From NCBI GenBank assembly GCA_963837465.1, contig CAWINB010000004.1, positions 650,853 through 714,852 on the forward strand: 64,000 nucleotides of DNA. The letters are read 5' to 3'. The position numbers and the translations under genes were made by a program. This stretch comes from Candidatus Doudnabacteria bacterium (GTDB lineage Bacteria > Patescibacteriota > Doudnabacteria > UBA920). The notes under the pieces are model-generated. The model searched no databases. It had not been told where the DNA came from and worked only from the letters and a program-made list of their open reading frames with translations. This document shows, one piece after another, positions 2,331 to 58,559 of this stretch (positions within the stretch are counted from its first letter, which is position 1; each line of letters opens with the position of its first letter).

Positions 2331-2334
2331 AGAT

Positions 2335-2365
2335 AATATCAAATTACAAATTTCAAATGACAAAT
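2335..2365. repeat. left arm of inverted repeat flanking the 4HB gene (CAAATTACAAATTTCAAAT motif)
   Basis: Reverse-complementary to 2731-2755 (ATTTGATATTTGTAATTTGAAATT). The same motif family recurs at 11382-11488. Confidence 0.6.
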
Positions 2366-2725
2366 GAAAAAAAATTTGACCTTGAAGAGCGGACTGCAAA
2401 ATTCGGGGAATCAACAATTGAGTTTGCGGGATTTATTCCACAAGGGCCTATTACCAACCCCTTAATTAACCAATATGTTAAATCCGGCACCTCAATCGGG
2501 GCAAATTATTGTGAAGCTGATTCAGCAGAATCAAGAAAAGACTTTGAGCACAAAATCGGTATTTGTAAAAAAGAGTCCAAAGAAACCCGCTACTGGTTGC
2601 GTATGATACCAAAAGCCAGACCTGAATTAGACCAAAAGGCCGCGATTCTTTGGAAAGAAGCTAATGAGCTATTATTGATATTTTCCGCGATTATCAAAAA
2701 GTCACGTATTAACGGATCAAAGTAA
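2357..2725 (+). CDS. four helix bundle protein (TIGR02436 / 23S rRNA intervening-sequence protein family)
   Basis: 122 aa with motifs IGANYCEA...SRKDFxHKIGICKKESKETRYWL typical of the family. Flanked by inverted repeats. Confidence 0.7.
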   Translation: MTNEKKFDLEERTAKFGESTIEFAGFIPQGPITNPLINQYVKSGTSIGANYCEADSAESRKDFEHKIGICKKESKETRYWLRMIPKARPELDQKAAILWKEANELLLIFSAIIKKSRINGSK

Positions 2726-2730
2726 TTTAG

Positions 2731-2755
2731 AATTTGATATTTGTAATTTGAAATT
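2731..2755. repeat. right arm of inverted repeat flanking the 4HB gene
   Basis: See left arm (2335-2365). Confidence 0.6.
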
Positions 2756-2781
2756 ATTAATTATGTTATAATTAAGTCGAT

Positions 2782-3237
2782 ATGCAATTTCCCGTGCCAC
2801 AATTTACGGATGTTGAGGATAAAATCATCGGCTCGCTTACGATTAAGCAGTTTGGGATTTTGTTTGGCGTCGGCATTGTCATTTTTTTGGGCTACTCTGT
2901 TTCCAAAAGCATTTTGGTGGCGATATTTTTGTTTTTGTTGTTCGGCGTGCCGGGTCTGGGCGTGGCCTTTGCCAAAATTAACGGCCGGCCCATATACAGC
3001 AGCATAGGCAATTTTATTAAGTTTTTTACCAGTCCCAAAGTCCTGATTTTTCACAAGGAAACTGTAAGTTCGTCGGCATCGACTGCCGCTTTTAAAGACG
3101 CCCAAATGGCCGCGGCCGAAGTAAAAGTCCAGGCTCCTGTTCCGGCCGAAAACACCCAAACGCATCTTAAACAAGTGGAGGAGCTCCTGAGAAAAACATC
3201 AAACCAGGAACAGGAAATGGCTAATAAAATCCGTTAG
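2782..3237 (+). CDS. PrgI-family protein (T4SS/conjugation-associated small membrane protein)
   Basis: N-terminus MQFPVPQFTDVEDKIIGSLTIKQF followed by two TM helices. Matches the PrgI family as found next to VirB4 in Gram-positive and CPR T4SS loci. Confidence 0.6.
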   Translation: MQFPVPQFTDVEDKIIGSLTIKQFGILFGVGIVIFLGYSVSKSILVAIFLFLLFGVPGLGVAFAKINGRPIYSSIGNFIKFFTSPKVLIFHKETVSSSASTAAFKDAQMAAAEVKVQAPVPAENTQTHLKQVEELLRKTSNQEQEMANKIR

Positions 3238-3270
3238 AATCAGGAGTTAGGAATTATGAGTTAGGGTCCT

Positions 3271-3317
3271 CCCTAACCCCTAACCCCTAACCCCTAACCC
3301 CTAACCCCTAACCCCCT
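3271..3317. repeat. tandem heptamer repeat (CCCCTAA)x~6.5, telomere-like, preceded by hairpin GTTAGGG-TCCT-CCCTAAC
   Basis: Direct reading of the sequence. Lies in the 83-bp gap between prgI-like and virB4-like genes. Confidence 0.95.
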
Positions 3318-4004: not shown

Positions 4005-4487
4005 TTATCAGGATACTGATATACCGATATGAATACGAATGATACCAATAATACGGATTCTAACAACCAACGCGGTGAATTAATTCATGGGGATTTAACA
4101 TATAAAATTAACAGTGTATTATTTTCTACCCACAATGAACTTGGTCCTTACGTCAGGGAAAGCAATATGAAGATGTGGCAAAAAGAATATTTAAAGAAAA
4201 AGGCATTGGTTATGAACAACAGGTTTCTATCGGCGATTCAGGTAATATAGTAGACGGCATTATTGATAAAAAGGTTCTTATTGAATACAAGGCCAAAAGG
4301 ATATTAACTAAAGAAGATTATTATCAAACCCAAAGATACCTTCAGGAAACCGGTTTAAAACTCGCTATTTTAGTCAATTTTAGAGATAAATATATTAAAC
4401 CCAAACGGATTATAAAAATAGATAACTGGAAATATTAGAATCAGTATTATTGGTATCATCTGTATCTTATCCGTATATTAGCATCAT
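4005..4487. mobile_element. 483-bp insertion in virB4 carrying the GxxExxY gene, bounded by inverted words GATACCAATAATAC (about 4050) and GTATTATTGGTATC (about 4450)
   Basis: virB4 N- and C-terminal parts are contiguous in homologues. The inverted repeats were read directly. Related repeat words also occur at 52840-52958. Confidence 0.5.
4029..4438 (+). pseudogene. GxxExxY-family protein (PD-(D/E)XK-like) gene, frameshifted, inside the insertion that splits virB4
   Basis: ORF 4029-4250 (LTYKINSVLFSTHNELGPY) and ORF 4175-4438 (YEDVAKRIF...IEYKAKRILTKEDYYQTQRYLQETGLKLAILVNF) together reconstruct the family consensus. The frames differ near 4160-4175. Confidence 0.6.
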
Positions 4488-11347: not shown

Positions 11348-11381
11348 GTCTGGATTTTATATATTCAGGCAGCTCCAGGTT

Positions 11382-11488
11382 AATTTCAAATTTCCAATTA
11401 CAAATTTCAAATTAATGCCGAGTACCCAATTTTGAATTTGATTGTTGGGGTTTGGTTTGAAATTTGATATTTGCAATTTGGAATTTTT
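11382..11488. repeat. solo copy of the CAAATTTCAAAT inverted-repeat element (no internal gene)
   Basis: Arms AATTTCAAATTTCCAATTACAAATTTCAAATT and TTTGAAATTTGATATTTGCAATTTGGAATT are inverted. Same family as the flanks of the 4HB gene at 2357. Confidence 0.6.
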
Positions 11489-11495
11489 TATTTTT

Positions 11496-12815
11496 ATGCC
11501 TAAAACATCAACAATCTTCGTCTGTTCCAACTGCGGCCACAAGAGTCCCCGCTGGCAGGGCAAATGCCCAAATTGCGGGCAATGGAACACTTTGGAGGAA
11601 AAGCACGAAGCAAAAGCCGGAGGCCGGACTTACAAAGCTTCGCGGATTGTGGATTTGTCTTCCGTGGACGTTGACCAGCGGCCGAGAATAATAACCGGCA
11701 TTGGGGAGTTTGACGAGGTCTTGGGCGGCGGCATTGTGCCGGGCAGTTTGGTGCTCCTGGGCGGTGACCCCGGCATAGGAAAATCCACTTTGGCGCTGCA
11801 GCTTTGCATGAAGGTTAAAGACAGCGTGCTGTATGTTTCGGGCGAGGAGTCGGTTAGCCAGATTAAACTGCGGGCGACGCGGCTGGATAAAAACCACCAA
11901 CTGGGAGTTTTGGCGGAGACCGATTTAGCTGCCATTTTGGCCACAATCCAAAACCAGGATCCGGCGTTGGTAATTTTGGATTCCATCCAAACCATTTACT
12001 CGGCCGAAAGCAGCGGCGTGGCAGGCGGCGTGGCCCAGGTTACCGGCGCGGTACAGCAGGTTATGCGTCTGGCCAAGCAAAACCATATTTCTTTTTTGGT
12101 TATTGGCCATGTAACCAAGGAGGGATATTTGGCCGGGCCCAAGACTTTGGAGCATATGGTGGACACCGTTTTGTATCTGGAAGGAGAACGGTTTGCCAAT
12201 TTCAGGATTTTGCGCTGCGTTAAAAACCGCTTTGGCACCACCAACGAAGTCGGAGTGTTTGAAATGCAGGGGCAGGGGTTGGTGGAAGTAAAAAATCCCT
12301 CCCAACTGTTTTTGGGCGAGGAGCAGTTGCAGGCTTCGGGGAACGTGGTAACTTCGGTTATGGAGGGCAGCCGCGCCCTGCTTTTGGAAATTCAGGCGCT
12401 TACTTCAACTACCAGTTTTGGTTATCCCAAGCGCACTACTGCCGGGTTTGATGTCAATCGTTTACAGTTATTAACCGCCATTCTTTCCAAGCGCGCGGGA
12501 CTGAACCTGTCCAACCAGGATATTTACGTCAACGTGGTCGGCGGCATAAAAATAGACGAGCCAGCCGCGGATTTAGCCGTGGCGCTGGCCATTGTTTCCA
12601 GCCTCAAAGATTCCATAATGTCCGAGACCGTGGCCATAGGCGAACTCGGCCTCTCCGGCGAAGTCCGCTTTGTCCCCAACCTGGAAAAACGCATAAAAGA
12701 AGCCGAAAAACTCGGCTTTAAAAAAATAATCTGCCCGAAAACTAAATTAACATCGCAAAATAAAATTGAGGTGGCGCAGGTTAGGACTTTGGCGGAAGCG
12801 ATTGTGAAAATATAA
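11496..12815 (+). CDS. radA: DNA repair protein RadA/Sms
   Basis: N-terminal zinc finger CSNCGHKSPRWQGKCPNCGQWNT, Walker A GGDPGIGKST, KNRFG motif and a Lon-like C-terminal domain. Confidence 0.9.
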   Translation: MPKTSTIFVCSNCGHKSPRWQGKCPNCGQWNTLEEKHEAKAGGRTYKASRIVDLSSVDVDQRPRIITGIGEFDEVLGGGIVPGSLVLLGGDPGIGKSTLALQLCMKVKDSVLYVSGEESVSQIKLRATRLDKNHQLGVLAETDLAAILATIQNQDPALVILDSIQTIYSAESSGVAGGVAQVTGAVQQVMRLAKQNHISFLVIGHVTKEGYLAGPKTLEHMVDTVLYLEGERFANFRILRCVKNRFGTTNEVGVFEMQGQGLVEVKNPSQLFLGEEQLQASGNVVTSVMEGSRALLLEIQALTSTTSFGYPKRTTAGFDVNRLQLLTAILSKRAGLNLSNQDIYVNVVGGIKIDEPAADLAVALAIVSSLKDSIMSETVAIGELGLSGEVRFVPNLEKRIKEAEKLGFKKIICPKTKLTSQNKIEVAQVRTLAEAIVKI

Positions 12816-15552: not shown

Positions 15553-15564
15553 TTAATATTCCAC

Positions 15565-15670
15565 AGATCACGGATAAGCACAGATTCACAGATTGATTAT
15601 CCGCTTAGTAGTATTGTTGGAAGAATTTAAATTATCAGATAAATAATCTGCGTATCTGTGTCAATCTGTG
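15565..15670. repeat. about 40-bp imperfect inverted repeat (CCACAGATCAC...CACAGATTCACAGATTGA / TCTGTGTCAATCTGTGATCTGTGG)
   Basis: Direct reading. Lies between tRNA-Arg and the downstream membrane-protein gene. Confidence 0.7.
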
Positions 15671-15681
15671 ATCTGTGGACA

Positions 15682-23547: not shown

Positions 23548-24757
23548 ATACCGTTCGGAAATCCGTTGGTGAAATCAGATGTTCCTGTTAAGCTTAAGCG
23601 ATAAAACCAAGGTTTAACCAGTTAACTAAGAAAGGAATCTAGTCATGCCAAAAAAAACGTCGCCATGTTTGTCCACATTGCAGCAGTTTAAAAACAATTA
23701 AATTTGGTAAGGATGGCAAGAGTCATCGCTACCTCTGCCATTTTTGTAAGCGCACCTTTTCCATTTACCACGGCCAGGATTCTCACAACCTTTGGATAGA
23801 GCATATTGACGGCGTGGGCTTTAGACGCTTAGGCGATGAAAACACCCTGTCAGGGCCCCAGACCTACGCGCGCGTCATCACAGAGCTGGATCAGCTGCCA
23901 AAAAACGACTTTTTGACCAAAACCCTCTGTGATTTGGCCCACTGCCAGGGGATTTTAATCCTTGACGGCAAATACATCGCGGTTAAAGGCTTTGAGCGGA
24001 AGATTCCATTCCTGTTCGGCATTGATTACCTGACTCACGATATTTTACACGGAGAATTGTTCTTTTCTGAGGACGAAGCGGCTTTCTCCCAGTACTTTCA
24101 GAAACTAAAAGACCTGGGCTACAACCTTAAAATAGTTGTCGCCGATGACAGAGCAGGCATAAAACAGGCTCTAAACAAGGTCTTTCCCTACGCGCGGCTG
24201 CAGCTCTGCCATGTCCACTTCCTGGAAAACATCCGCGCTGTGCTTAGGGTTAAAACCGAGGAGCGCTACAGACACTTTTTTAATTCACTTAAGCTCCATG
24301 TGTTTACCGAAGGAGCGGATGAGGAAAAAATTGACGCCGGACTGGAGCATGTCTTAAGAAATCATGCCCAACACAGCCCCAAACTCCAGGATATTATCTG
24401 GGAAGTTAAGCGTAGACGCGAAGCCTTGTTTAATTACCTGAAAGTCAAAGACTGTCCCAACAACACCAACCTCATAGAACTTTTTAATTCCCACTTAAAC
24501 GGCCGCCTTAAAACCATCAAGGGTTTCCAGAGTTTTAAGTCGGCAAATCGCTGGCTTAACGCCTGGATGATTCGGCGCCGCAGCAAGACTTTTACCGATT
24601 GCGACAAAAAATTTAAATATTTAAACAAACACTGCTCCCTGGAATTTACCATTAAAAAACAGGCCCTGTGGCCTGAAACTTTAAAAACTTTAGGAATTAA
24701 CAAAATAAATTTTTTCGAAAAAAGCGATTACTAACAACGGATTCCCGAACGGTAACC
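23548..24757. mobile_element. IS1-family-like insertion sequence (about 1.2 kb) with imperfect terminal inverted repeats TACCGTTCGG(A/G)AATCCGTTG
   Basis: IRL 23548-23568 vs IRR 24735-24757 (19/20 match). Encodes one transposase with an InsA-like zinc ribbon and an InsB-like DDE domain. Confidence 0.65.
23645..24734 (+). CDS. IS1-family transposase (InsA-like Zn-ribbon fused to InsB-like DDE domain); frame broken in an A-run at 23650-23657
   Basis: Zinc ribbon CPHCSSLKTIKFGKDGKSHRYLCHFCKRTFS, cf. IS1 InsA ...[20 protein letters not shown]. DDE region ILDGKYIAVKG / IVVADDRAGIK / IELFNSHLNGRLKTIKGFQSF, cf. InsB MDEQWGYVGAK / WMTDGW / [22 protein letters not shown]. The ATG at 23645 is +1 out of frame with the body. 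The A-run is the only place they can be joined. Confidence 0.6.
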
Positions 24758-24943: not shown

Positions 24944-25885
24944 TTATAAATTCATCTCCCGTAACCTCTTAACCCTGTCCTCAATCGGCGGGTGGGTGTT
25001 AAACAGGCTGGCGAACCAGCTGCGCGCGCCGTGGGCGCTGCCTTGTTGGCTGGAAGTGGCTTCCATCCTGTCCTGGTGGAATGGATTGACTATGTAAAAA
25101 TGCGCCGTGGCATTGTTGGCTTCGGCGAGCGGAGCGGAGTCATCTGAAATTTTTTCCAAAGCTGACGCAAGACCTTCGGGGTATCTTGTTAAAAGCGCGC
25201 CGCTGGCATCTGCCAAATATTCCCTTTGGCGGGAAACAGCCAGTTTTATTAAAGTGGCAATGAGCGGTGAAAGGATGGCCAAAAGAATACCAACCGCGAA
25301 AAGTATCATGCCTAAATTGCCATTATTGTTGTTATTGCTCCTGCGGCCGCCGAAAATGGAAAAGCGCAAAAACCAGTTGGACATAAGCGCTATCATGCCC
25401 ACCAAAACCACAACCAGGGTCATTAAACGGATATCGTAATTGCCAATGTGCGAAAGTTCGTGCGCGGTAACGCCTTCCAGTTCGGTTTTGTTCAATTTTT
25501 GCAGAATCCCGCTGGTGTAGCAAATGACCGCGTGCTTTGGGTCGCGGCCCGTGGCAAAGGCGTTGGGAGCGGAGTCTTGAATAATATAGATTTTTGGCGT
25601 AGGAATGCCCGCGGCAATGCACAAATTTTCCACTATGTTATAGAGCTGCTGGTTTGTCGCCCGGTCAACGGCCTGGGCTTTGGAAACCGCTAGCGTGATG
25701 GAGTCGGCAAAATAATAAGAGAATAATGCCGAGAAAACGCTAATAAACACAGCCAAATACAAAATCGCGTCGTCCTGATAAATTTGCGCGAACACCCAGC
25801 CAATAGCCGAAATTACCACTAAAAAGCTGAATATTAATATCCAGCTGTCGCGTTTATTTTTGGCGATAAAATCGTAGGTAAGCAT
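24944..25885 (-). CDS. htpX: zinc metalloprotease HtpX (M48)
   Basis: HELSH zinc motif (TAHELSHIGNYD) and a multi-TM topology. Confidence 0.8.
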   Translation of the reverse strand: MLTYDFIAKNKRDSWILIFSFLVVISAIGWVFAQIYQDDAILYLAVFISVFSALFSYYFADSITLAVSKAQAVDRATNQQLYNIVENLCIAAGIPTPKIYIIQDSAPNAFATGRDPKHAVICYTSGILQKLNKTELEGVTAHELSHIGNYDIRLMTLVVVLVGMIALMSNWFLRFSIFGGRRSNNNNNGNLGMILFAVGILLAILSPLIATLIKLAVSRQREYLADASGALLTRYPEGLASALEKISDDSAPLAEANNATAHFYIVNPFHQDRMEATSSQQGSAHGARSWFASLFNTHPPIEDRVKRLREMNL

Positions 25886-25886
25886 T

Positions 25887-25923
25887 GGGGGTAGGGTATA
25901 GGGGCTAGGGGGTTAGGGGTTAG
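25887..25923. repeat. G-rich flank GGGGGTAGGGTATAGGGGCTAGGGGGTTAGGGGTTAG (GGGGTTA units)
   Basis: Inverted complement of the C-rich flank 26308-26343 on the other side of the 4HB gene. Has at least 4 G-tracts. Confidence 0.85.
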
Positions 25924-25931
25924 AAAAGCAC

Positions 25932-26303
25932 CTAATTGATTGTAGTTGAGCGAAGTTTTTTGATTAGCGCTAGTAGCATTTTTTGTACTTGCAGAAGTAA
26001 TGACTTAGCGATCAAATAATCAAAATTCGGATACAATTTTTCCATCAGTAATATTTGTGTTTCAAGTTCTGCCGTCGATCCAAAAGCTATGCCCAAAAAT
26101 TGAATGAATTCTTTGGTATGGTTCCTCGCGTGGCCTTCTGCTATGTTGGAAGGTATAGAGATGGCAGCTCTTTGTGTTTGTGAACAAAGGCCGTAAAGTT
26201 CGTGTTTAGGAAATTGGCGGGTAATTTTATATATTTCTAATACTAAATCATTAGATTTTTGCCAAACAATTAAGTCTTTGTAGCTTAAGATCTGGTTTTG
26301 CAT
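25932..26303 (-). CDS. four helix bundle protein (TIGR02436 / 23S rRNA IVS protein family), second copy
   Basis: Motifs DLIVWQKS...FPKHELYGLCSQTQRAAISIPSNIAEGHAR...GSTAELETQ, canonical for the family. Confidence 0.8.
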   Translation of the reverse strand: MQNQILSYKDLIVWQKSNDLVLEIYKITRQFPKHELYGLCSQTQRAAISIPSNIAEGHARNHTKEFIQFLGIAFGSTAELETQILLMEKLYPNFDYLIAKSLLLQVQKMLLALIKKLRSTTIN

Positions 26304-26307
26304 ACTA

Positions 26308-26343
26308 TTCCCTAATCTCTATTCCCTAGCCCCTACCATTAGA
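26308..26343. repeat. C-rich flank ATTCCCTAATCTCTATTCCCTAGCCCCTACCATTAG
   Basis: Shares the core AGGGGCTAGGG/CCCTAGCCCCT in inverted orientation with 25887-25923. Confidence 0.8.
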
Positions 26344-26884
26344 ATTTCACCGCCACCGGCTGCGCCTCCGGACCGCTTTCGTCTATCCCAAAGAATTGCT
26401 TAGCCGTAAAACCAAACATGGAAGCGAACAGGTTGGTAGGGAAGACCTGGAGTTTGGTGTTGTAGTCGCGGGCGGTGCCGTTGTAGAAGCGGCGGGCGGC
26501 CTGGATTTTGTCTTCGGTATCGGTTAAATCGCTTTGCAGCTGCAAAAAGTTTTGGTTGGCTTTTAAGTCCGGATAGGCTTCGGCCACGGCAAACAAACTT
26601 TTTAGCGTGCCGGAAAGCGCGTTTTCCTTAGCCAGTTTATCATCAAGCGATCCTGCTCCCATAGCCGCGGTGCGGGCAGCCGTGACTTTTTCAAAAACTC
26701 CGGATTCATGAGCGGCGTAGCCCTGCACGGTACTGACCAAATTGGGGATTAAATCATACCGACGCTTTAACTGAACGTCTATATCGCTCCACGCTTCATC
26801 CACGCGGTTTTTGGAACGGACCAGACCGTTAAATAGCAGGACGGCAATAATCACAATTGCCAAAATTATCCACAAAAATACCAT
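26339..26884 (-). CDS. lemA: LemA family protein
   Basis: N-terminal TM followed by the LemA domain (RYDLIPNLV...). Confidence 0.75.
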   Translation of the reverse strand: MVFLWIILAIVIIAVLLFNGLVRSKNRVDEAWSDIDVQLKRRYDLIPNLVSTVQGYAAHESGVFEKVTAARTAAMGAGSLDDKLAKENALSGTLKSLFAVAEAYPDLKANQNFLQLQSDLTDTEDKIQAARRFYNGTARDYNTKLQVFPTNLFASMFGFTAKQFFGIDESGPEAQPVAVKF

Positions 26885-33218: not shown

Positions 33219-34688
33219 ATGAACTTCCAATATCTACAACTAACCGAATTGCGCAAGCTTTTGGATGACAAACAACTCTCCTCCGTTGAACTGACGAAGT
33301 ATTTTTTGGAGCGGATAAAAAACAGCGACCTTAACGCTTTTATTACGGTAACCGAAGATTTGGCTATCCAGCAGGCAAAGCGCGCGGATGATTTTATATC
33401 AAGCCCAGGTGAAAACCCTTTTTTATGCGGTATTCCTTACGCGGCCAAAGATTTGTTTTGCGCAAAAGGCGTCCGCGCCACCGCGGCCAGCAAAATTTTG
33501 GACAACTATATCGCGCCGTACAATGCCACGTCAATTAGCAAAATCAAACAAAATTACGGAGTATTAATCGGCAAAACCAATTTGGACCAGTTCGCGCACG
33601 GCTCAAGCGGCGAGACATCGGCTTACGGCCCCACCAAAAATCCCTGGGACGAAACCCGCATGCCCGGCGGCTCGTCTTCCGGCTCATGCGCGGCCGTTGC
33701 CGCCGGCCTTAGTCCCTGGGCGGTGGCGACCGAAACCGGCGGCAGTATCCGCCAACCCGCCTCGCTTTCCGGCATCAGCGGCTGGAAACCAACATACGGC
33801 CGCGTTTCGCGCTACGGAGTTATTTCCATGGGCTCGTCACTGGATTCCATAGGAGCGGTAGCCTATTCGGTCCGCGATCTGGCGGAAATTGCCAATGTTA
33901 TGTCGGGCATTGACCCCAAAGATTCAACCACCGGCGACCATCCCGCAAACTACAAACTACATCCTACAAACTTGTCCCACATCCGCGTGGGCATCCCCAA
34001 ACAATATTTTGTGGATGGCATGGAAGCGGGCGTAAAGCAGCGCGTAATGGAAGCGATTAAAGAACTGGAAAAGTTGGGCGCAACGCTGGTGGAAGTTGAT
34101 TTGCCGAATACCAAATATGGTTCCTTGGTTTACGCGATTATCTGCCCATCGGAAGTTTCTTCCAATTTGGCGCGCTACGACGGCATTCGCTACGGACATG
34201 TAACCAACGAGGCCAAAGATCTTTTGCAGGTTTACGAAAAATCCCGCGCCGAGGGTTTTGGCAACGAAGCCAAGCGCCGCATTTTAACCGGTACTTACGT
34301 GCTGTCCGCCGGTTATTACGATGCTTACTACAAAAAAGCCCAAAAAGTCCGCAGGCTGATTATTAACGAATTTGCCGAAATTTTTAAACAGGTGGATGTT
34401 TTAGCCTGCCCCTCCACCCCGAATGTGGCCGCAAAGCTTGGCCATGCCGCCGACAACCCGCTTCACGGCTACATTGCCGACCAGTTAAATATTCCCGGCT
34501 CCCTGGCCGGCCTGCCCGCTTTATCGGTACCCTGCGGTTTTGCCAAAGCTCCCGATGCCGATGTTGACCTACCCGTGGGCCTGCAAATAATCGGCCCGCA
34601 ATGGGGCGAGCAAAAAGTTTTTGATGTCGGGCATGCGTACCAGTTGGCTACGGACTGGCATAAAAAACATCCGGACAGTATGAATTAG
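33219..34688 (+). CDS. gatA: Asp/Glu-tRNA amidotransferase subunit A
   Basis: Amidase signature (GGSSSGSCAAVA...ETGGSIRQPAS). Confidence 0.9.
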   Translation: MNFQYLQLTELRKLLDDKQLSSVELTKYFLERIKNSDLNAFITVTEDLAIQQAKRADDFISSPGENPFLCGIPYAAKDLFCAKGVRATAASKILDNYIAPYNATSISKIKQNYGVLIGKTNLDQFAHGSSGETSAYGPTKNPWDETRMPGGSSSGSCAAVAAGLSPWAVATETGGSIRQPASLSGISGWKPTYGRVSRYGVISMGSSLDSIGAVAYSVRDLAEIANVMSGIDPKDSTTGDHPANYKLHPTNLSHIRVGIPKQYFVDGMEAGVKQRVMEAIKELEKLGATLVEVDLPNTKYGSLVYAIICPSEVSSNLARYDGIRYGHVTNEAKDLLQVYEKSRAEGFGNEAKRRILTGTYVLSAGYYDAYYKKAQKVRRLIINEFAEIFKQVDVLACPSTPNVAAKLGHAADNPLHGYIADQLNIPGSLAGLPALSVPCGFAKAPDADVDLPVGLQIIGPQWGEQKVFDVGHAYQLATDWHKKHPDSMN

Positions 34689-42949: not shown

Positions 42950-44640
42950 ATGCGGCAATCCAAATATTTTTTAAAAACTTCCAAAACATTTTCCGAAGAA
43001 GATGTTAAGATTATTTCTTCCAAGCTTTTAAAGCAGGCCGGGTATATTGCCGAGTCGGTGGCCGGACGGTATTATTTTTTGCCGGCCGGACAGCGGGTCC
43101 AGCAAAAGATTATGAAAGTTATTAAGGAAGAAATGGACGCGGCCGGGGCCCAGGAAATGGTCGCGCCGATTTTGCATCCTTTGGAGTTATGGAAAGAGAC
43201 CAACAGGACTTCCACGGCGGGGTTTGAGCTTATGAAAGTCAAAGACCGGCGCGACAGCGAATTCGCCCTAGGCGGCACGGCCGAGGAAATGTTCGTGGAC
43301 TTGGCGCGCAAATACCAGCTCAGCTACAAAGATTTGCCGTTTCAGTTGTATCAGTTTTCTCCAAAATTTCGCGACGAACTGCGCGCGCGCGGCGGACTTT
43401 TGCGCGTCCGGGAGTTTATAATGAAGGACGGTTACTCTTTCCATCGCGACGAACAAGATTTCAGGCTGACTTATGAGCAGATGAAAAAAGTTTACAGCGT
43501 GATTTTTAGCCGCTTGGGACTGAAAACAGATATAGTGGAATCGGACAACGGTTATATCGGCGGCGAATATTGCCATGAATTTGTGGTTGAATCGGAAATC
43601 GGCGAAACCCGCTATTTCGCCGCGGAAGACGGCAGCTACGCGGCGCACGAAGACGTGGCTAAATTTAAAAAATACCGGGACGAACAGGACGAAGCCGGAC
43701 AGGAACGCCGGGATGTGGAAGGCGCGGGAATTATCGGGGTTGAGCAACTGGCTAAATTCTTAAAAATCCCCGTGGAAAAAACCACCAAAACAATTTTGTT
43801 TGAAACCGACAAAGGCCAAGTCGTGGCCGCCGCGGTTAACGGCATGTACGATATTAACGAGACCAAGCTGAAGCATGTTTTGGGCTGTAATGATTTAAAG
43901 CTGGTCAGTCCCGAGACAATAAAAAAACTTACCGGCGCCGAGGTCGGCTATGCCGGAATTTTAAATCTTCCCGAAAGCGTCAGGGTTGTCATGGATGAAT
44001 CGGTAGGCGCGAGGAAAAATTTTGAATGCGGCGCCAATAAAACCAATTACCATTCCATCAACATCAATTTTGGCCGTGATTTGCCGCTGCCGGAAAAATT
44101 TTACGACATCGCCATGGCCAAGGCCGGATATTTGTCGGTGGACGGACGGAATCAGTTAGTGGAGAAACGCGGCATTGAAGTCGGCAATATTTTCCAGCTC
44201 GGCTACCATTACACGAAACTTATGAAGGGCGCCAATTTCCGCGACGAAGACGGCCTGGAAAAACCCTATTACATGGGCTGTTACGGCATTGGCGTGGGCG
44301 CGCTATGGCCACGCTGGTGGAAGTATTCCATGATGAAAAAGGCATTATGTGGCCGGAAAGTTCGGCGCCGTTTAAGGCTCATCTTATTGCCCTTAAGGGA
44401 GCGGAAAAAGAAGCCGAAAAAATTTACCGCAATCTTCTTGAACAAGGCATTGAAGTACTGTATGATGACAGGGAAGCCAGCGCCGGAGTAAAATTCGCGG
44501 ACAGTGATTTAATCGGCATTCCCTGGCGCCTGGTAGTTTCGGCCAAAACTCTGGAAAAAAACAGCGTGGAAGTCAAAAAAAGGGCGGAAAAGGATTTTAA
44601 GCTGGTGGAAATCCCCAAAATCTCAGAAGCAATAAAATAA
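42950..44640 (+). pseudogene. proS: prolyl-tRNA synthetase with an apparent -1 frameshift near 44296-44302 (ORFs 42950-44491 and 44305-44640)
   Basis: Class II motifs are intact. ...GCYGIGVG is followed out of frame by RAMATLVEVFHDEKGIMWP, the anticodon-binding domain. One C appears to be missing in a GGCCGCGC context. Confidence 0.8.
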
Positions 44641-44719: not shown

Positions 44720-45772
44720 GTGCTACAAAAATTTTACCAAAAATTCAGCAAAGACATCGGCATAGATTTGGGCACGGCCAATACGCTTGTGTATGTTAAA
44801 GGCAAGGGGATTGTTATTAATGAGCCCAGTGTTGTTGCCATTAACCAGCGCACCAAACAGATTTTGGCCATTGGCAGCGAGGCTCGGAACATGGTCGGCC
44901 GCACGCCGCCGCACATTGTGGCTACCAGGCCGTTGGTGGACGGCGTCATTTCGGATTTTGAAGTTACCGAAGCCATGCTCCGTTATTTTATAGACAAAGT
45001 CCACAACCAGACTTATCCTTTTTTGCGCCGGCCGCGGGTGGTTATAGGAATCCCCAGCGGCGTCACTGAAGTGGAAAAACGCGCGGTTATTGACGCGGCC
45101 ATTAACGCCGGAGCCAGCCGGGCCTACTTGATAGAAGAACCCATGGCCGCGGCCATTGGCGCCAGGTTAAAAGTCCAGGACGCCGCCGGCAGCATGATTG
45201 TTGACATAGGCGGCGGCACCACGGAAATTGCCGTCATCTCTTTGGGAGGCATTGTTATCTCCAAAAGTTTGCGCGTGGCGGGCGACGAAATGAACCAAAA
45301 TATAGTCCAGTACGCCCGCGAACATTTTAACCTGCTGTTGGGCGAGCGCACGGCCGAAGATGTCAAAATAAAAATCGGCAGCGCTTATCCGCTGGAAAAA
45401 CCAATCTACGCCCAAATGCGCGGCCGGGATTTGGTCAGCGGCCTGCCCAAAGAAGTTACAATTTCCGATACCCAAGGCAGGGAAGCTTTAATGCGCAGCT
45501 TGAAAGTTATTGTCAACAGCATTAAAAGCGTGGTTGAGGAAATTCCGCCTGAACTGATATCCGATATTTTGGGCAGCGGCATAGTTCTTGCTGGCGGCGG
45601 CTCGCTTTTGCGCGGCCTGGACAAGCTGGTTTACGAGGCCACCTCCCTGCCGATTAACGTGGCCGAAGACCCGTTAACCTGCGTGGTCCGCGGCACGGGA
45701 GTTATCGTGGAAGACCTGGAGGTTTTAAAGGATGTGTTAGTCCCCACGGAGTTCGCCAAGATCCCGAGATAA
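44720..45772 (+). CDS. mreB: rod shape-determining protein MreB
   Basis: DIGIDLGTANTLVYVKGKGIVINEPSVVAI. Confidence 0.9.
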   Translation: MLQKFYQKFSKDIGIDLGTANTLVYVKGKGIVINEPSVVAINQRTKQILAIGSEARNMVGRTPPHIVATRPLVDGVISDFEVTEAMLRYFIDKVHNQTYPFLRRPRVVIGIPSGVTEVEKRAVIDAAINAGASRAYLIEEPMAAAIGARLKVQDAAGSMIVDIGGGTTEIAVISLGGIVISKSLRVAGDEMNQNIVQYAREHFNLLLGERTAEDVKIKIGSAYPLEKPIYAQMRGRDLVSGLPKEVTISDTQGREALMRSLKVIVNSIKSVVEEIPPELISDILGSGIVLAGGGSLLRGLDKLVYEATSLPINVAEDPLTCVVRGTGVIVEDLEVLKDVLVPTEFAKIPR

Positions 45773-47248: not shown

Positions 47249-49198
47249 ATGTACGACCCTTTTGACATTAAAACCGGCTCCAGCGCCCCGGGCAAAAAAA
47301 AACCCCTGGACTGGGAAGAGTCGGCCGTGGACACCAACAGCAGCATCAAAGAGCTGCATGATTCCGATCGCCTAACGCCGACTTTGTGGTGGCTGGGTGG
47401 TTTGCTGCTCCTGACTTTTTTTATTTTAGCCTCCAGGATATTTTTTCTTCAGATTGTCCAGGGGAAAAGTTTCCGCCAGCTGTCGGACAGTAACCGCATC
47501 CGCAGCCAGGCTATCCTGGCGCCGCGCGGGTTAATCGCAGACAGAAACGGCCAGCCTTTGGTGCAGAATGTGGCCAGTTTTAATTTAGTAGCGGTACCTT
47601 TTGACTTGCCCAAAGACAGTTCCGTGCTGCAGTCTGAAATTCAGAGTTTGGCCCAAACTTTTTCCCTGAACGCTTCGGATATCAGCCAAAAATTGGCGGA
47701 CGTAAACCGTGACTCCGTGGATCCGGTGGAAATCAAACAGGGTTTAACCGGCGACCAGAGTATCCTGCTTCAAACCCAGAGCGACCAGTTCGCGGGTTTT
47801 GAGGCGCAGCAGGTTCCCATAAGGCAGTATCTGGACCCGCTGGCTTTTTCCGATATTTTGGGATATACCGGCTTAGTCGGTCCCGGGGACTTAACCGCGC
47901 AAAACCAGGATTTATACAATACGGTTGATTTTATCGGCAAAACCGGCGTGGAAGCTTCCTACGAAAAATACCTGCACGGGCAAAACGGGGAAAATATCAT
48001 AGAGGTGGACGCGACCGGAAAATTTTTAAGCGCCCTGGGGCAGCAAAATCCGGTTGCCGGCGACAAGCTGGTCTTAAATATAGACAAAGGTCTGCAGGAC
48101 CGCTTGTATCAGGATTTGGCGTCGGTTAAGTCCCCCAGGGCCGCGGCCGTTGCTTTGGACCCGCGGACCGGAGCCGTGTTGGCTTTAGTCAGCCTGCCGG
48201 GGTTTGACGACAATCTTTTTGCCGCCGGCATAAGCTCGCAGGACTATCAAAAACTTTTAAACGATCCCAACCTGCCTCTTTTTAACCGCGCCATTGCCGG
48301 GCAGTATCCGCCCGGCTCCACTTCCAAACTTATGACGGCCACGGCCGGACTCCAGGAAGGTGTTATCACTCCGGACACGGTGATAGTGGACAATGGTGAT
48401 CTTATAGTACCCAACGAGTTTGGAGGCACCCCCGCCCAGTTCCACGGCTGGAAGCCCGGCGGTCTTGGCCCGATGACCGTGCGCGGCGCCATCGCCTTAA
48501 GCTCGGACATCTTTTTTTACCAGGTGGCAGGCGGTCCGCCCAACGGTTCCTGGCCCGGGTTGGGCCCAAACAGGCTGGCGGAGTATTTCCGGAAGTTCGG
48601 CCTTGGTAAAGCATTGGGCATAGACATCCCTGGAGAAAAAGGCGGTCTTGTGCCGGACCCTGCCTGGAAAATGCAGTATTACAACAACGACCCGCTTTTG
48701 GGCAAATGGTACTTGGGCGACACCTACCACATGGGCATTGGCCAGGGTGATTTGCTGGTCACGCCGCTGCAAGTGGCGGAGTGGACCGCGATTGTGGCCG
48801 ATGGCGGCACGGGATATGTACCCGAGGTGGCGCAGCAGGCCGTAGACCAAAACGGCCAGGTTGTTTGGCAAAACAAACCCAAGGTCCTGGTTTCCAATAT
48901 TGCCTCGCCGGCAGTGTTTAAAATTGTGCAGGAGGGGATGAGGCAAACGGTCACCGCCGGCACGGCCAAGCCTTTAAATTCCCTGCCCATAACATCCGCC
49001 GGGAAAACCGGAACCTCCCAGTTTGACGGTTCCGACCCAAGCGCGACGCATGCCTGGTTTACGGCCTACGCGCCCTATGAGGATCCGCAGATTGTGGTAA
49101 CCGTCCTGGTTGAGGCCGGCGGCGAAGGCAATGCCGTGGCCGAGCCCGTAGTCAAAGACGCCCTCAACTGGTGGGCGGTTAACAGGATGGGGAAATAA
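47249..49198 (+). CDS. mrdA: penicillin-binding protein 2 (transpeptidase)
   Basis: N-terminal TM. SxxK (PGSTSK) and KTG (GKTGTS) motifs. Confidence 0.8.
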   Translation: MYDPFDIKTGSSAPGKKKPLDWEESAVDTNSSIKELHDSDRLTPTLWWLGGLLLLTFFILASRIFFLQIVQGKSFRQLSDSNRIRSQAILAPRGLIADRNGQPLVQNVASFNLVAVPFDLPKDSSVLQSEIQSLAQTFSLNASDISQKLADVNRDSVDPVEIKQGLTGDQSILLQTQSDQFAGFEAQQVPIRQYLDPLAFSDILGYTGLVGPGDLTAQNQDLYNTVDFIGKTGVEASYEKYLHGQNGENIIEVDATGKFLSALGQQNPVAGDKLVLNIDKGLQDRLYQDLASVKSPRAAAVALDPRTGAVLALVSLPGFDDNLFAAGISSQDYQKLLNDPNLPLFNRAIAGQYPPGSTSKLMTATAGLQEGVITPDTVIVDNGDLIVPNEFGGTPAQFHGWKPGGLGPMTVRGAIALSSDIFFYQVAGGPPNGSWPGLGPNRLAEYFRKFGLGKALGIDIPGEKGGLVPDPAWKMQYYNNDPLLGKWYLGDTYHMGIGQGDLLVTPLQVAEWTAIVADGGTGYVPEVAQQAVDQNGQVVWQNKPKVLVSNIASPAVFKIVQEGMRQTVTAGTAKPLNSLPITSAGKTGTSQFDGSDPSATHAWFTAYAPYEDPQIVVTVLVEAGGEGNAVAEPVVKDALNWWAVNRMGK

Positions 49199-54395: not shown

Positions 54396-54567
54396 TTGAC
54401 CTAATTATACTAATTACCCTAAGTGCCCTAAGAATAACTAATGTCCAATTTCTAATATCCAAGCATCACGAGGTTTTGGGTATTAGACGTTAGATATTGT
54501 TAATTATTTAGAGTACTTGGGTTAATTAGAACAATTAGTATAATTTATAAACTTAATTTTTATTACT

Positions 54568-57154: not shown

Positions 57155-57269
57155 GCGCGCCCCTCAAGGGCAACCCTCGCGCGGAGGCTTTATATAATTT
57201 AATTATGGCCATATGATTAATTTACTACAAACCTAAACCGGGCGGCGCGAGGGTTGCCCTTGAGGGGCT
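57155..57269. repeat. perfect 24-bp inverted repeat GCCCCTCAAGGGCAACCCTCGCGC separated by 63 nt of AT-rich loop
   Basis: Direct reading. Confidence 0.9.
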
Positions 57270-58513: not shown

Positions 58514-58559
58514 GGTTTCGTGTGCGCTAGCGTACTAGTACGCTAGCGCACACGAAACC
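58514..58559. repeat. 46-bp perfect palindrome GGTTTCGTGTGCGCTAGCGTAC|TA|GTACGCTAGCGCACACGAAACC (copy 3 of the palindromic element)
   Basis: Direct reading. Contains NheI- and SpeI-type hexamers. Related copies at 36744-36787 and 19122-19165. Confidence 0.9.

Follow-up and report, generated by a model that had tools for sequence, protein, structure and literature searches.

Our subject is a gene for a 123-aa four-helix-bundle (4HB) protein that lies between lemA and htpX in a 64,000-nt stretch of DNA, referred to here as the window, from Candidatus Doudnabacteria bacterium (contig CAWINB010000004.1, positions 650,853-714,852 of the forward strand). The gene sits inside two inverted arrays of 7-nt units (heptads) that are complementary to each other. 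A first-pass annotation, made from the sequence alone, had likened the arrangement to an rRNA intervening sequence (IVS), in which an open reading frame (ORF) is carried inside a long processed stem, but had placed it as an insertion outside rRNA. The principal evidence presented here is comparative: complementary arms accompany the gene in every orthologous locus compared, in two sequence flavors that follow the host tree, and arms of the same kind bracket its more distant homologues. The features at the locus are listed below in the order lemA, 4HB, htpX.

26339-26884, minus strand: lemA, first gene of the operon (PF04011, 3.5e-60), with its stop codon at 26339-26341
26304-26338, minus strand: 5' arm, in mRNA sense UGGUAGGGGCUAGGGAAUAGAGAUUAGGGAAUAGU, occupying the entire 35-nt lemA-4HB spacer
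25932-26303, minus strand: 4HB gene, 123 aa (PF05635, 2.2e-34; TIGR02436, 4e-34)
25886-25931, minus strand: 3' arm, in mRNA sense GUGCUUUUCUAACCCCUAACCCCCUAGCCCCUAUACCCUACCCCCA, CUA-phased and occupying the entire 46-nt 4HB-htpX spacer
24944-25885, minus strand: htpX (M48 protease), last gene of the trio (PF01435, 5.5e-31; NF003425, 2.1e-98), with its ATG at 25883-25885
25899-25910, no strand assigned: left copy of the complementary core, plus-strand sequence TAGGGGCTAGGG, an exact 12 nt that is 100% complementary to 26324-26335
26324-26335, no strand assigned: right copy of the complementary core, plus-strand sequence CCCTAGCCCCTA, partner of 25899-25910

The left tract (25887-25923, GGGGGTAGGGTATAGGGGCTAGGGGGTTAGGGGTTAG) and the right tract (26310-26342, CCCTAATCTCTATTCCCTAGCCCCTACCATTAG) enclose the 4HB gene where the first-pass annotation had them, and the 12-nt core that they share in inverted orientation is exact; a longer alignment that includes the core spans 19 nt at 79% complementarity. 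The contact of the tracts with the neighboring genes is also as had been described, the right tract enclosing the lemA stop codon and the left tract beginning 1 nt past the htpX ATG. The 5' arm carries UAG at 7-nt steps (offsets 4, 11, 18, 25 and 32) and contains a direct repeat with 14-nt spacing. Since 7 equals 1 modulo 3, three heptad units supply a stop in every frame, and each of the three reading frames indeed gets a stop codon from the UAG phasing of this arm. The 3' arm includes a G-rich plus-strand array (25887-25923) with a period of 7 and 5.1 copies according to Tandem Repeats Finder. Upstream of lemA there is a promoter-like site (26950-26923, 10 of 12 positions matched, with TG). 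With up to one mismatch allowed, the window has 7 copies of the word AGGGGCTAGGG (1.07 expected), all of them in the two tracts and an array at 3271-3309, and the heptamer GGGGTTA is common to the locus tract and the array at 3271-3316. The earlier proposal that the locus reuses a heptamer of the 3271-3317 array therefore stands as far as the sharing is concerned, but the link is not specific to the locus, as heptad arrays of this genome form a wider class to which the heptamer belongs. Searches for known elements returned no Rfam match in 25700-26500, even at E <= 1, no rRNA in the 64-kb window and no PADLOC defence-system match for either of the two 4HB proteins that the window encodes.

By its profile matches, the 4HB gene is an ordinary member of the PF05635/TIGR02436 family, that of the '23S rRNA-intervening sequence protein' (118.3 bits against a cut-off of 33.8 for PF05635, and 117.1 bits against a cut-off of 24 for TIGR02436). 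An AlphaFold2 model of the monomer has four helices and a pLDDT of 94.4. Foldseek matches this model to XCC0516 (2gsc; TM 0.86-0.92, rmsd 1.2), which phmmer also matches at 1.8e-20, and to BT_0352 (2rld, 'S23 ribosomal protein family'; TM approximately 0.77-0.84), and then to Avd (4dwl and 8ube; TM about 0.75). Both the profiles and the fold thus agree with the family membership that the first-pass annotation had implied. Homologues are numerous, with 5679 at E <= 1e-10. Amino-acid identity among orthologues is 75-84% for the 4HB protein, compared with 69-82% for LemA and 68-83% for HtpX, and the orthologue dN/dS is about 0.05-0.07, with dS saturated. These comparisons of coding sequences show the 4HB protein to be under purifying selection, with conservation on par with that of LemA and HtpX.

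With regard to pairing of the arms, the minimum-energy fold of the whole region closes with a stem joining both spacers (z = -1.8), and the flanks are in this sense able to base-pair around the ORF as had been anticipated. Folded alone, the spacers form 25 pairs, arranged as helices of 5-7 bp that are interrupted by 2x2 internal loops. The predicted stem reaches from 1 nt past the lemA stop to 4 nt short of the htpX ATG. When the 3' spacer was shuffled with its dinucleotide content preserved, 27 of 3000 trials (0.9%) gave a complementary word of at least 12 nt and 105 of 3000 (3.5%) matched or beat the duplex energy. Taken alone, the single locus goes beyond chance only moderately; we find the pairing of the arms convincing because the comparative data, described in the next section, support it. 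A terminator or attenuator reading of the stem was ruled out by the 370-nt loop, the absence of a following T-run and the fact that no terminator-like site was found within the lemA-4HB-htpX trio. The organism appears to start translation mostly without Shine-Dalgarno pairing, and the missing Shine-Dalgarno sequence before htpX is uninformative because only 6 of 40 likely window genes have even a loose motif.

Orthologous loci and the wider family

A metagenome scan with the 4HB protein missed the orthologues, its best match having 62% identity. Orthologues were the nearest homologues (70-89% protein identity), located one by one on their contigs, and together with the window they make up ten distinct loci (the window, L177, L178, L001, L011, L003, L007, L179, L180 and L182). 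The order lemA-4HB-htpX is kept wherever enough sequence exists, as is the wider neighborhood, which consists of a divergent trpR-like gene on one side and of recX and then clpB downstream. In the window the interval from htpX to recX holds a fragment of an IS256/Mutator-type transposase (23814-24734; 306 aa, matching only profile positions 158-367 of 379) that is missing from this position in all of the orthologous loci.

Complementary arms are present in 10 of the 10 loci despite saturated synonymous divergence, and in the comparison with relatives' spacers that the first-pass annotation had proposed, no locus was found with the gene but without flanking repeats. The arms come in two flavors. 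Those of the window, L177, L178, L001 and L011 are of the TAGGGG/CCCCTA type, and those of L003, L007, L179, L180 and L182 are of the AGCGGTAAG/CTTACCGCT type and have no G-runs. Pairing between arms is good within a flavor and poor across flavors (words of 5-7 nt). In a neighbor-joining tree of LemA plus HtpX all carriers fall in one clade, the two subclades of which correspond to the two arm flavors. A MAFFT alignment brings the heptad frames of all ten loci into register, and when the stem derived from the window is imposed on this alignment 74.8% of cells are paired, compared with 36-56% after a shift of the partner by 1-3 columns. Covariation scored 0.132 against a shuffled mean of 0.080, a value reached by 0 of 500 shuffles. 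Nine pairs changed on both sides, including G-C to C-G at heptad position four and U-A to A-U at position one; the AG of UAG and the CU of CUA are invariant in the orthologue arms, and the number of heptad units differs from orthologue to orthologue. Taken together, the alignment and the tree indicate that both arms switched flavor together, following the host tree, and that complementarity was maintained.

The origin of the cassette was approached through a LemA scan of species-representative genomes, which returned 80 loci; the nearest LemA relatives come from metagenome-assembled genomes of Patescibacteria/Saccharibacteria. In most Patescibacteria htpX directly follows lemA with a spacer of 0-100 nt (about 60 lemA-htpX loci). 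The nearest outgroup in the tree (L098) has an empty site at which the lemA stop and the htpX start overlap in the sequence TAATG. Given this empty outgroup site and the single clade of carriers, the carriers descend from one ancient insertion into a translationally coupled junction, in line with the earlier description of the locus as an insertion, and the pattern indicates that the cassette has been inherited vertically since then. We also considered a target-site duplication. The sequence AATG occurs at both ends of the cassette in the window, but there is no duplication in any orthologue, and this candidate was rejected with AATG taken as chance or its counterparts as erased by divergence.

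On sequence comparison, the lemA-htpX spacer is a place that has been occupied independently in four further loci. In L126 (3004-3480) it holds a 4HB gene of 44% identity with its own complementary arms, which run in the reverse polarity, with CTA upstream and TAG downstream. In L119 (565-962) it holds a 90-aa Cys-rich ORF inside complementary arms of the GTTACGC type. In L097 (3046-3135; -32.9 kcal/mol, z = -5.2) and L109 (3037-3125) the spacer is filled by a heptad hairpin with no ORF.

To see how far the arrangement extends, we turned to 80 metagenomic loci with 4HB homologues of 47-62% identity in unrelated contexts. Visual examination of these loci revealed the anatomy seen in the window, and the measurements that follow were made on the 69 of them that are distinct. 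The duplex energy of a gene's own flanks had a median of -27.6 kcal/mol, compared with -18.7 kcal/mol for mismatched partners, and 27 of the 69 loci fell under the 5th percentile of this control; a complementary word of at least 9 nt was present in 46% of own pairs and in 5.5% of mismatched pairs. Flank self-similarity peaks at a lag of 7 nt, with period 7 the best in 49 of 69 upstream flanks. TAG is the top trinucleotide upstream, CTA is second downstream (behind AAA), and 88 TAG-TAG intervals measure exactly 7 nt. The arms have a polarity: the G-rich arm precedes the gene and the C-rich arm follows it in 40 loci, and the order is reversed in 2. Period-7 tracts number 21.3 per 10 kb next to 4HB ORFs; the rest of these loci has 1.17 and the LemA loci have 0.37. 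Neighboring genes are mostly co-directional (53 of 62 on the upstream side, 40 of 59 on the downstream side) and the spacers are short (medians of 40 nt upstream and 26.5 nt downstream), so that the arms essentially fill them. The first-pass annotation had treated the location outside rRNA as an oddity. This did not hold up: when 40 homologue loci were tested for rRNA location none was in rRNA, and homologues of this 4HB family normally lie outside it.

The same layout is found on annotated plasmids of cultured organisms. Nostoc edaphicum has (AGTAGGG)n/(TCCCTAC)n arms with 24 nt of exact complementarity in an nrdA-nrdB spacer, and the bracketed layout is also present on plasmids of N. punctiforme, Geminocystis and Riemerella. 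On a plasmid of Picosynechococcus PCC 7003 the 4HB gene stands in this layout between cas10 and cmr3, and in Anabaena sp. 90 and Pseudanabaena it stands between cas6 and cas4 (the cyanobacterial plasmid loci with a 4HB gene inside a cas operon are L186, L188 and L191). As far as the flanks of these homologues reveal, the bracketed layout is a family-wide rule that extends from the Candidate Phyla Radiation (CPR) to cyanobacteria and Bacteroidota. A separate observation concerns the Nostoc edaphicum plasmid pNe_5 (L195), where 4 of the 6 heptad tracts in 50 kb have the AGTAGGG/TCCCTAC unit (43207-43256, 44382-44449, 44835-44887 and 48932-48969). Two of them flank, as its arms, the antisense 4HB gene of the nrdA-nrdB spacer, and the other two lie in inverted orientation outside the nrdAB operon, giving a nested bracket.

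Other cassettes and repeats in the window

Two further bracketed cassettes and two heptad hairpins with no ORF were found in the window.

2333-2762, plus strand: second bracketed cassette, with a 4HB gene at 2357-2725 (PF05635, 6.8e-11; TIGR02436, 4.4e-17)
4033-4465, plus strand: third bracketed cassette, with 31-nt arms that are 90% complementary and 371 nt apart, enclosing a GxxExxY (PD-(D/E)XK) ORF (TIGR04256, 3.5e-10)
3233-3316, plus strand: ORF-less G-rich heptad hairpin (GTTAGGx / CCCTAAC x6) in the spacer between prgI and the next gene (-27 kcal/mol, z = -4.5)
11379-11496, plus strand: ORF-less AT-rich heptad hairpin (AATTTCA / TTTGAAA) in a spacer of co-directional genes (-29.2 kcal/mol, z = -1.9)

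The second 4HB gene has arms of AT-rich heptads (CAAATTA/CAAATTT/CAAATGA and AATTTGA/TATTTGT) that are 33 nt long and 85% complementary. The fold closes a stem of approximately 25 bp (z = -2.7), and the ATG of the gene lies within the final upstream heptad unit. This gene is directly 5' of a prgI-like gene (2782-3237) in a type IV secretion-like cluster. In six unrelated metagenomic loci with a 4HB homologue (L018, L025, L035, L075, L095 and L096) the gene 3' of the 4HB cassette opens with ATGAAATTCCAAGTTCC (MKFQVPQF..), and the window prgI-like protein begins with the related motif MQFPVPQF; a position upstream of prgI thus appears to be recurrent for 4HB genes in CPR type IV secretion-like clusters, with the neighbors identified by their first residues alone. 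The third cassette is just 5' of a virB4-like gene. A 1-nt frameshift near 4165-4180 divides its GxxExxY ORF in two (4029-4250 and 4175-4438) and could reflect a pseudogene, a sequencing error or recoding. Each ORF-less hairpin fills its spacer and matches one of the window 4HB cassettes in flavor (G-rich GGGGTTA and AT-rich AAATTTC), and the window has 7 tracts of period 7 compared with 0 of periods 5, 6 and 8.

Several other repeats were noted. Period-7 arrays at 529-627 (CAAGTTC x3 / AAGTTGA and CAAATGC / CAAATTA) fall inside a low-complexity ORF (23-1126), so either these arrays are translated as coding sequence or the ORF call there is wrong. The rplK-rplA spacer (54398-54547), unusually long for what is normally a short ribosomal-protein spacer, is filled by a hairpin of approximately 60 bp made of CTAA/TTAG-phased 8-9-nt units (-50.3 kcal/mol, z = -7.1). 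A leader motif, TTTTCGTAcTTyGyAAAct, occurs directly 5' of the ATGs at 33219 (plus strand), 59696 (minus strand) and 61377 (minus strand) and is similar to the TTTCGTA units of the L097 hairpin. Finally, there is an inverted repeat with 59-nt arms of CACAGAT-type units adjoining tRNA-Arg (15560-15679), a perfect 24-nt inverted pair 62 nt apart (57159-57268) and a perfect 25-nt overlapping palindrome (58514-58559).

Candidate explanations

We favor the explanation that the locus is an ancient, vertically inherited cassette of the IVS type, with the 4HB gene lying within paired inverted heptad arrays of the lemA-4HB-htpX transcript, and we consider this explanation to be probably correct. In the proposed mechanism the arms would pair in the polycistronic transcript as an interrupted stem of approximately 25 bp, looping out the 370-nt ORF, and the stem may be what lets a tightly coupled operon, with an ancestral junction that was presumably TAATG, tolerate a 460-nt insert. 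There are two options for how this might work: (i) the stem could be an RNase III site that frees the 4HB message, by analogy with the intervening sequences of 23S rRNA; or (ii) a ribosome translating lemA could open the stem at its base, which would free the htpX start and restore translational coupling. As Shine-Dalgarno use is rare in this organism, the accessibility of start sites is likely to matter. The UAG heptads might in addition halt read-through in any frame.

A number of points weigh against this explanation. The stem is interrupted, with helices of 5-7 bp separated by 2x2 loops, and the fold of the whole region reaches only z = -1.8. The structure used for the covariation count came from one of the aligned sequences, and the covariation is largely a single flavor switch inherited by relatives, with few independent events. 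Across the wider family, the strict period-7 criterion picks out only 26 of 78 loci, the Pseudanabaena arrays are direct and not inverted (AAAAGCT x12 / AAAAGCC x10), and the gamma 4HB copy of PCC 7120 has no complementary arms. RNase III cleavage and translational coupling are both putative steps. Lastly, G:U mismatches in the arms number 20 against 24 for A:C, a comparison of low power in which the tandem units permit several registers. With no excess of G:U there is no sign that pairing has been selected on the sense RNA as opposed to the DNA level, and for this reason concerted evolution of the DNA stays a serious rival.

According to this rival, which we regard as possible if unlikely, the arms act at the DNA level only. 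They would be slippage-prone tandem repeats or terminal inverted repeats, or else a palindrome homogenised by repair or conversion, with no role in the transcript and with the 4HB gene as cargo or resident. Besides the missing G:U excess on the sense strand, this would be consistent with the tandem nature of the arms and the variation in unit number among orthologues, with the ORF-less arrays of the same flavor elsewhere in the window and beside the Nostoc copy, and with the repeated occupation of the lemA-htpX spacer (L126, L119, L097 and L109), which suggests insertional behavior. Concerted evolution could also account for the retention of the arms in the absence of any RNA function. Set against this, the cassettes travel without a transposase or recombinase and complementarity survives in all ten orthologues at saturated synonymous divergence. 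Moreover, neither the polarity of the arms relative to the ORF (40 versus 2 loci) nor the exact filling of the spacer from stop to start would be expected of a symmetric palindrome.

A further alternative is an autonomous system akin to RAYT/REPIN, in which the 4HB protein would recognise or propagate its own heptads and ORF-less hairpins, including those of the short tandemly repeated repetitive (STRR) class and structural-RNA inserts, would be non-autonomous derivatives. The presence in the window of two divergent 4HB genes that differ from each other in arm flavor, plus one ORF-less hairpin per flavor, fits such a system, as do the 4 of 6 heptad tracts that carry the 4HB arm unit in 50 kb of the Nostoc edaphicum plasmid and the common occurrence of ORF-less heptad hairpins in Patescibacteria spacers. 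The homologue Avd, represented by 8ube among the fold matches, binds RNA stem-loops in a reverse-transcriptase complex (10.1101/2023.10.23.563531). We nevertheless hold this alternative to be quite improbable, in that no catalytic activity is known for 4HB proteins, arms also enclose unrelated ORFs (GxxExxY at 4033-4465 and the Cys-rich ORF in L119) and the lemA-htpX copy has been immobile since the origin of its clade.

The first-pass annotation had drawn attention to the G-quadruplex potential of the tracts, and the left tract does have five runs of at least 3 G spaced 2-4 nt apart, being one of two such tracts in 64 kb. However, these G-runs are on the template strand, where the mRNA is C-rich, only three runs of 3 or more G are present in the 5' arm when it is read in mRNA sense, and five orthologues (L003, L007, L179, L180 and L182) have no G-runs yet keep complementarity. 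Because half of the orthologues, those with AGCGGTAAG-type arms, are without G-runs, we reject the G-quadruplex as a conserved feature, and a role for such elements in regulating htpX or the 4HB gene is very unlikely. Hardly credible at all are chance complementarity of low-complexity spacers, which composition-preserving shuffles allow at the rates given above (0.9% for the 12-nt word and 3.5% for duplex energy) but which is excluded by the conservation of the arms in ten orthologues and by the pattern seen across the family, and an Avd accessory gene of a diversity-generating retroelement (DGR), which has weak matches in its favor (PF22296, 6.6e-05; phrog_3206, 6e-08) but for which NF033474 gives 25 bits against an equivalog cut-off of 80 and no Pfam reverse-transcriptase domain was found in ten large ORFs within approximately 9 kb on each side (template and variable repeats were not searched directly). 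The ORFs scanned around the locus include clpB, recX, htpX, lemA, a trpR-like gene, a sigma factor, hisG and secA.

Relation to known systems

Of the known systems, Avd is related through its protein. The window 4HB protein and Avd have homologous four-helix-bundle folds (TM about 0.75 to both 4dwl and 8ube), and Avd is a positively charged pentameric barrel that touches RNA duplexes and stem-loops in the DGR ribonucleoprotein (10.1101/2023.10.23.563531). The two differ in that the window protein is only about 12% identical to Avd, falls under the NF033474 cut-off and has no reverse transcriptase among the neighboring ORFs scanned; by these measures it is not a DGR Avd. Judging from this homology, the protein most plausibly binds structured nucleic acid as a pentamer. 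Its own stem is a possible target, which is a reasonable hypothesis because its homologue contacts RNA duplexes and stem-loops.

RAYT genes are flanked by inverted REP (repetitive extragenic palindromic) sequences and are accompanied by dispersed REPINs. The resemblance lies in a small gene bracketed by an inverted short repeat that is also present as ORF-less hairpins, of which the 64 kb studied here have one per flavor. Unlike RAYT, the window protein is a four-helix bundle and not a Y1/HUH transposase, and the repeats of the window differ from REP in being tandem heptads that vary in sequence by locus and whose mobility is only hypothetical.

In the case of the STRR sequences, the likeness is to the arms. 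Both consist of 7-bp tandem units in inverted arrays that are able to form hairpins in the spacers of co-transcribed genes, and cyanobacterial 4HB genes are themselves flanked by such heptad arrays. STRR sequences are, however, defined as ORF-less repeats of heterocystous cyanobacteria (they also occur inside the gene for RNase P RNA), whereas the window arrays enclose a gene and belong to Patescibacteria. Since the host is not a heterocystous cyanobacterium, 'STRR-like' is the accurate term for the arms. STRR sequences have no known function; for the hairpin between hupS and hupL, transcript stabilisation or translational coupling has been proposed (PMC2670836).

Precedent for a 4HB-type ORF inside a stem comes from the 23S rRNA IVS of Coxiella burnetii, where the loop of a 28-bp terminal stem holds the S23p ORF and RNase III cuts this stem at its middle (PMC4990558). 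The rRNA IVSs of Coxiella and Leptospira share with the window element a PF05635 ORF of about 120 codons within complementary termini that form a long stem, as well as a sporadic presence among relatives that points to insertion. The differences are that (i) the rRNA IVS sits in helix 45 or 25 of 23S rRNA and the window element in a lemA-htpX mRNA operon; (ii) its stem is one near-perfect helix, compared with interrupted tandem heptad arrays in the window; and (iii) the Coxiella ORF is reported as decaying, whereas the window 4HB gene is under strong purifying selection. The window element thus fails the defining feature of an IVS, rRNA location, and shares its anatomy and its ORF family.

Our searches of the open-access literature turned up no account of 4HB genes lying within inverted heptad arrays, nor of a link between STRR sequences and 4HB genes. 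To our knowledge, PF05635 is among the commonest small protein families of unknown function, and we know of no explanation that has been given for either STRR heptamers or rRNA intervening sequences since about 1990. The presence of 4HB genes bracketed by inverted heptads in ordinary operons ties all three together, and testable predictions follow: the arms would be processed by RNase III or would couple translation, and the protein would bind its own stem. For annotation, heptad arrays of this kind should not be confused with CRISPR arrays, telomere-like contamination or terminators. A clustering study names '23S rRNA IVP' among CRISPR-linked proteins (PMC10910872); insertion of 4HB genes between repeat arrays in cas operons may explain this listing, although this is conjecture on our part.

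A broader and doubtful proposal, which we put forward tentatively, is that PF05635 proteins and STRR-type heptad hairpins are two halves of one system present in CPR bacteria, cyanobacteria and Bacteroidota. The cassette with its ORF would be the complete form, ORF-less hairpins and the inserts in rRNA and RNase P RNA would be derivatives or landing sites, and an Avd-like pentamer would act on stems of its own flavor by binding, processing or propagating them. If this were true, the intervening sequences of 23S rRNA would be one special case of a two-part 4HB-heptad system.

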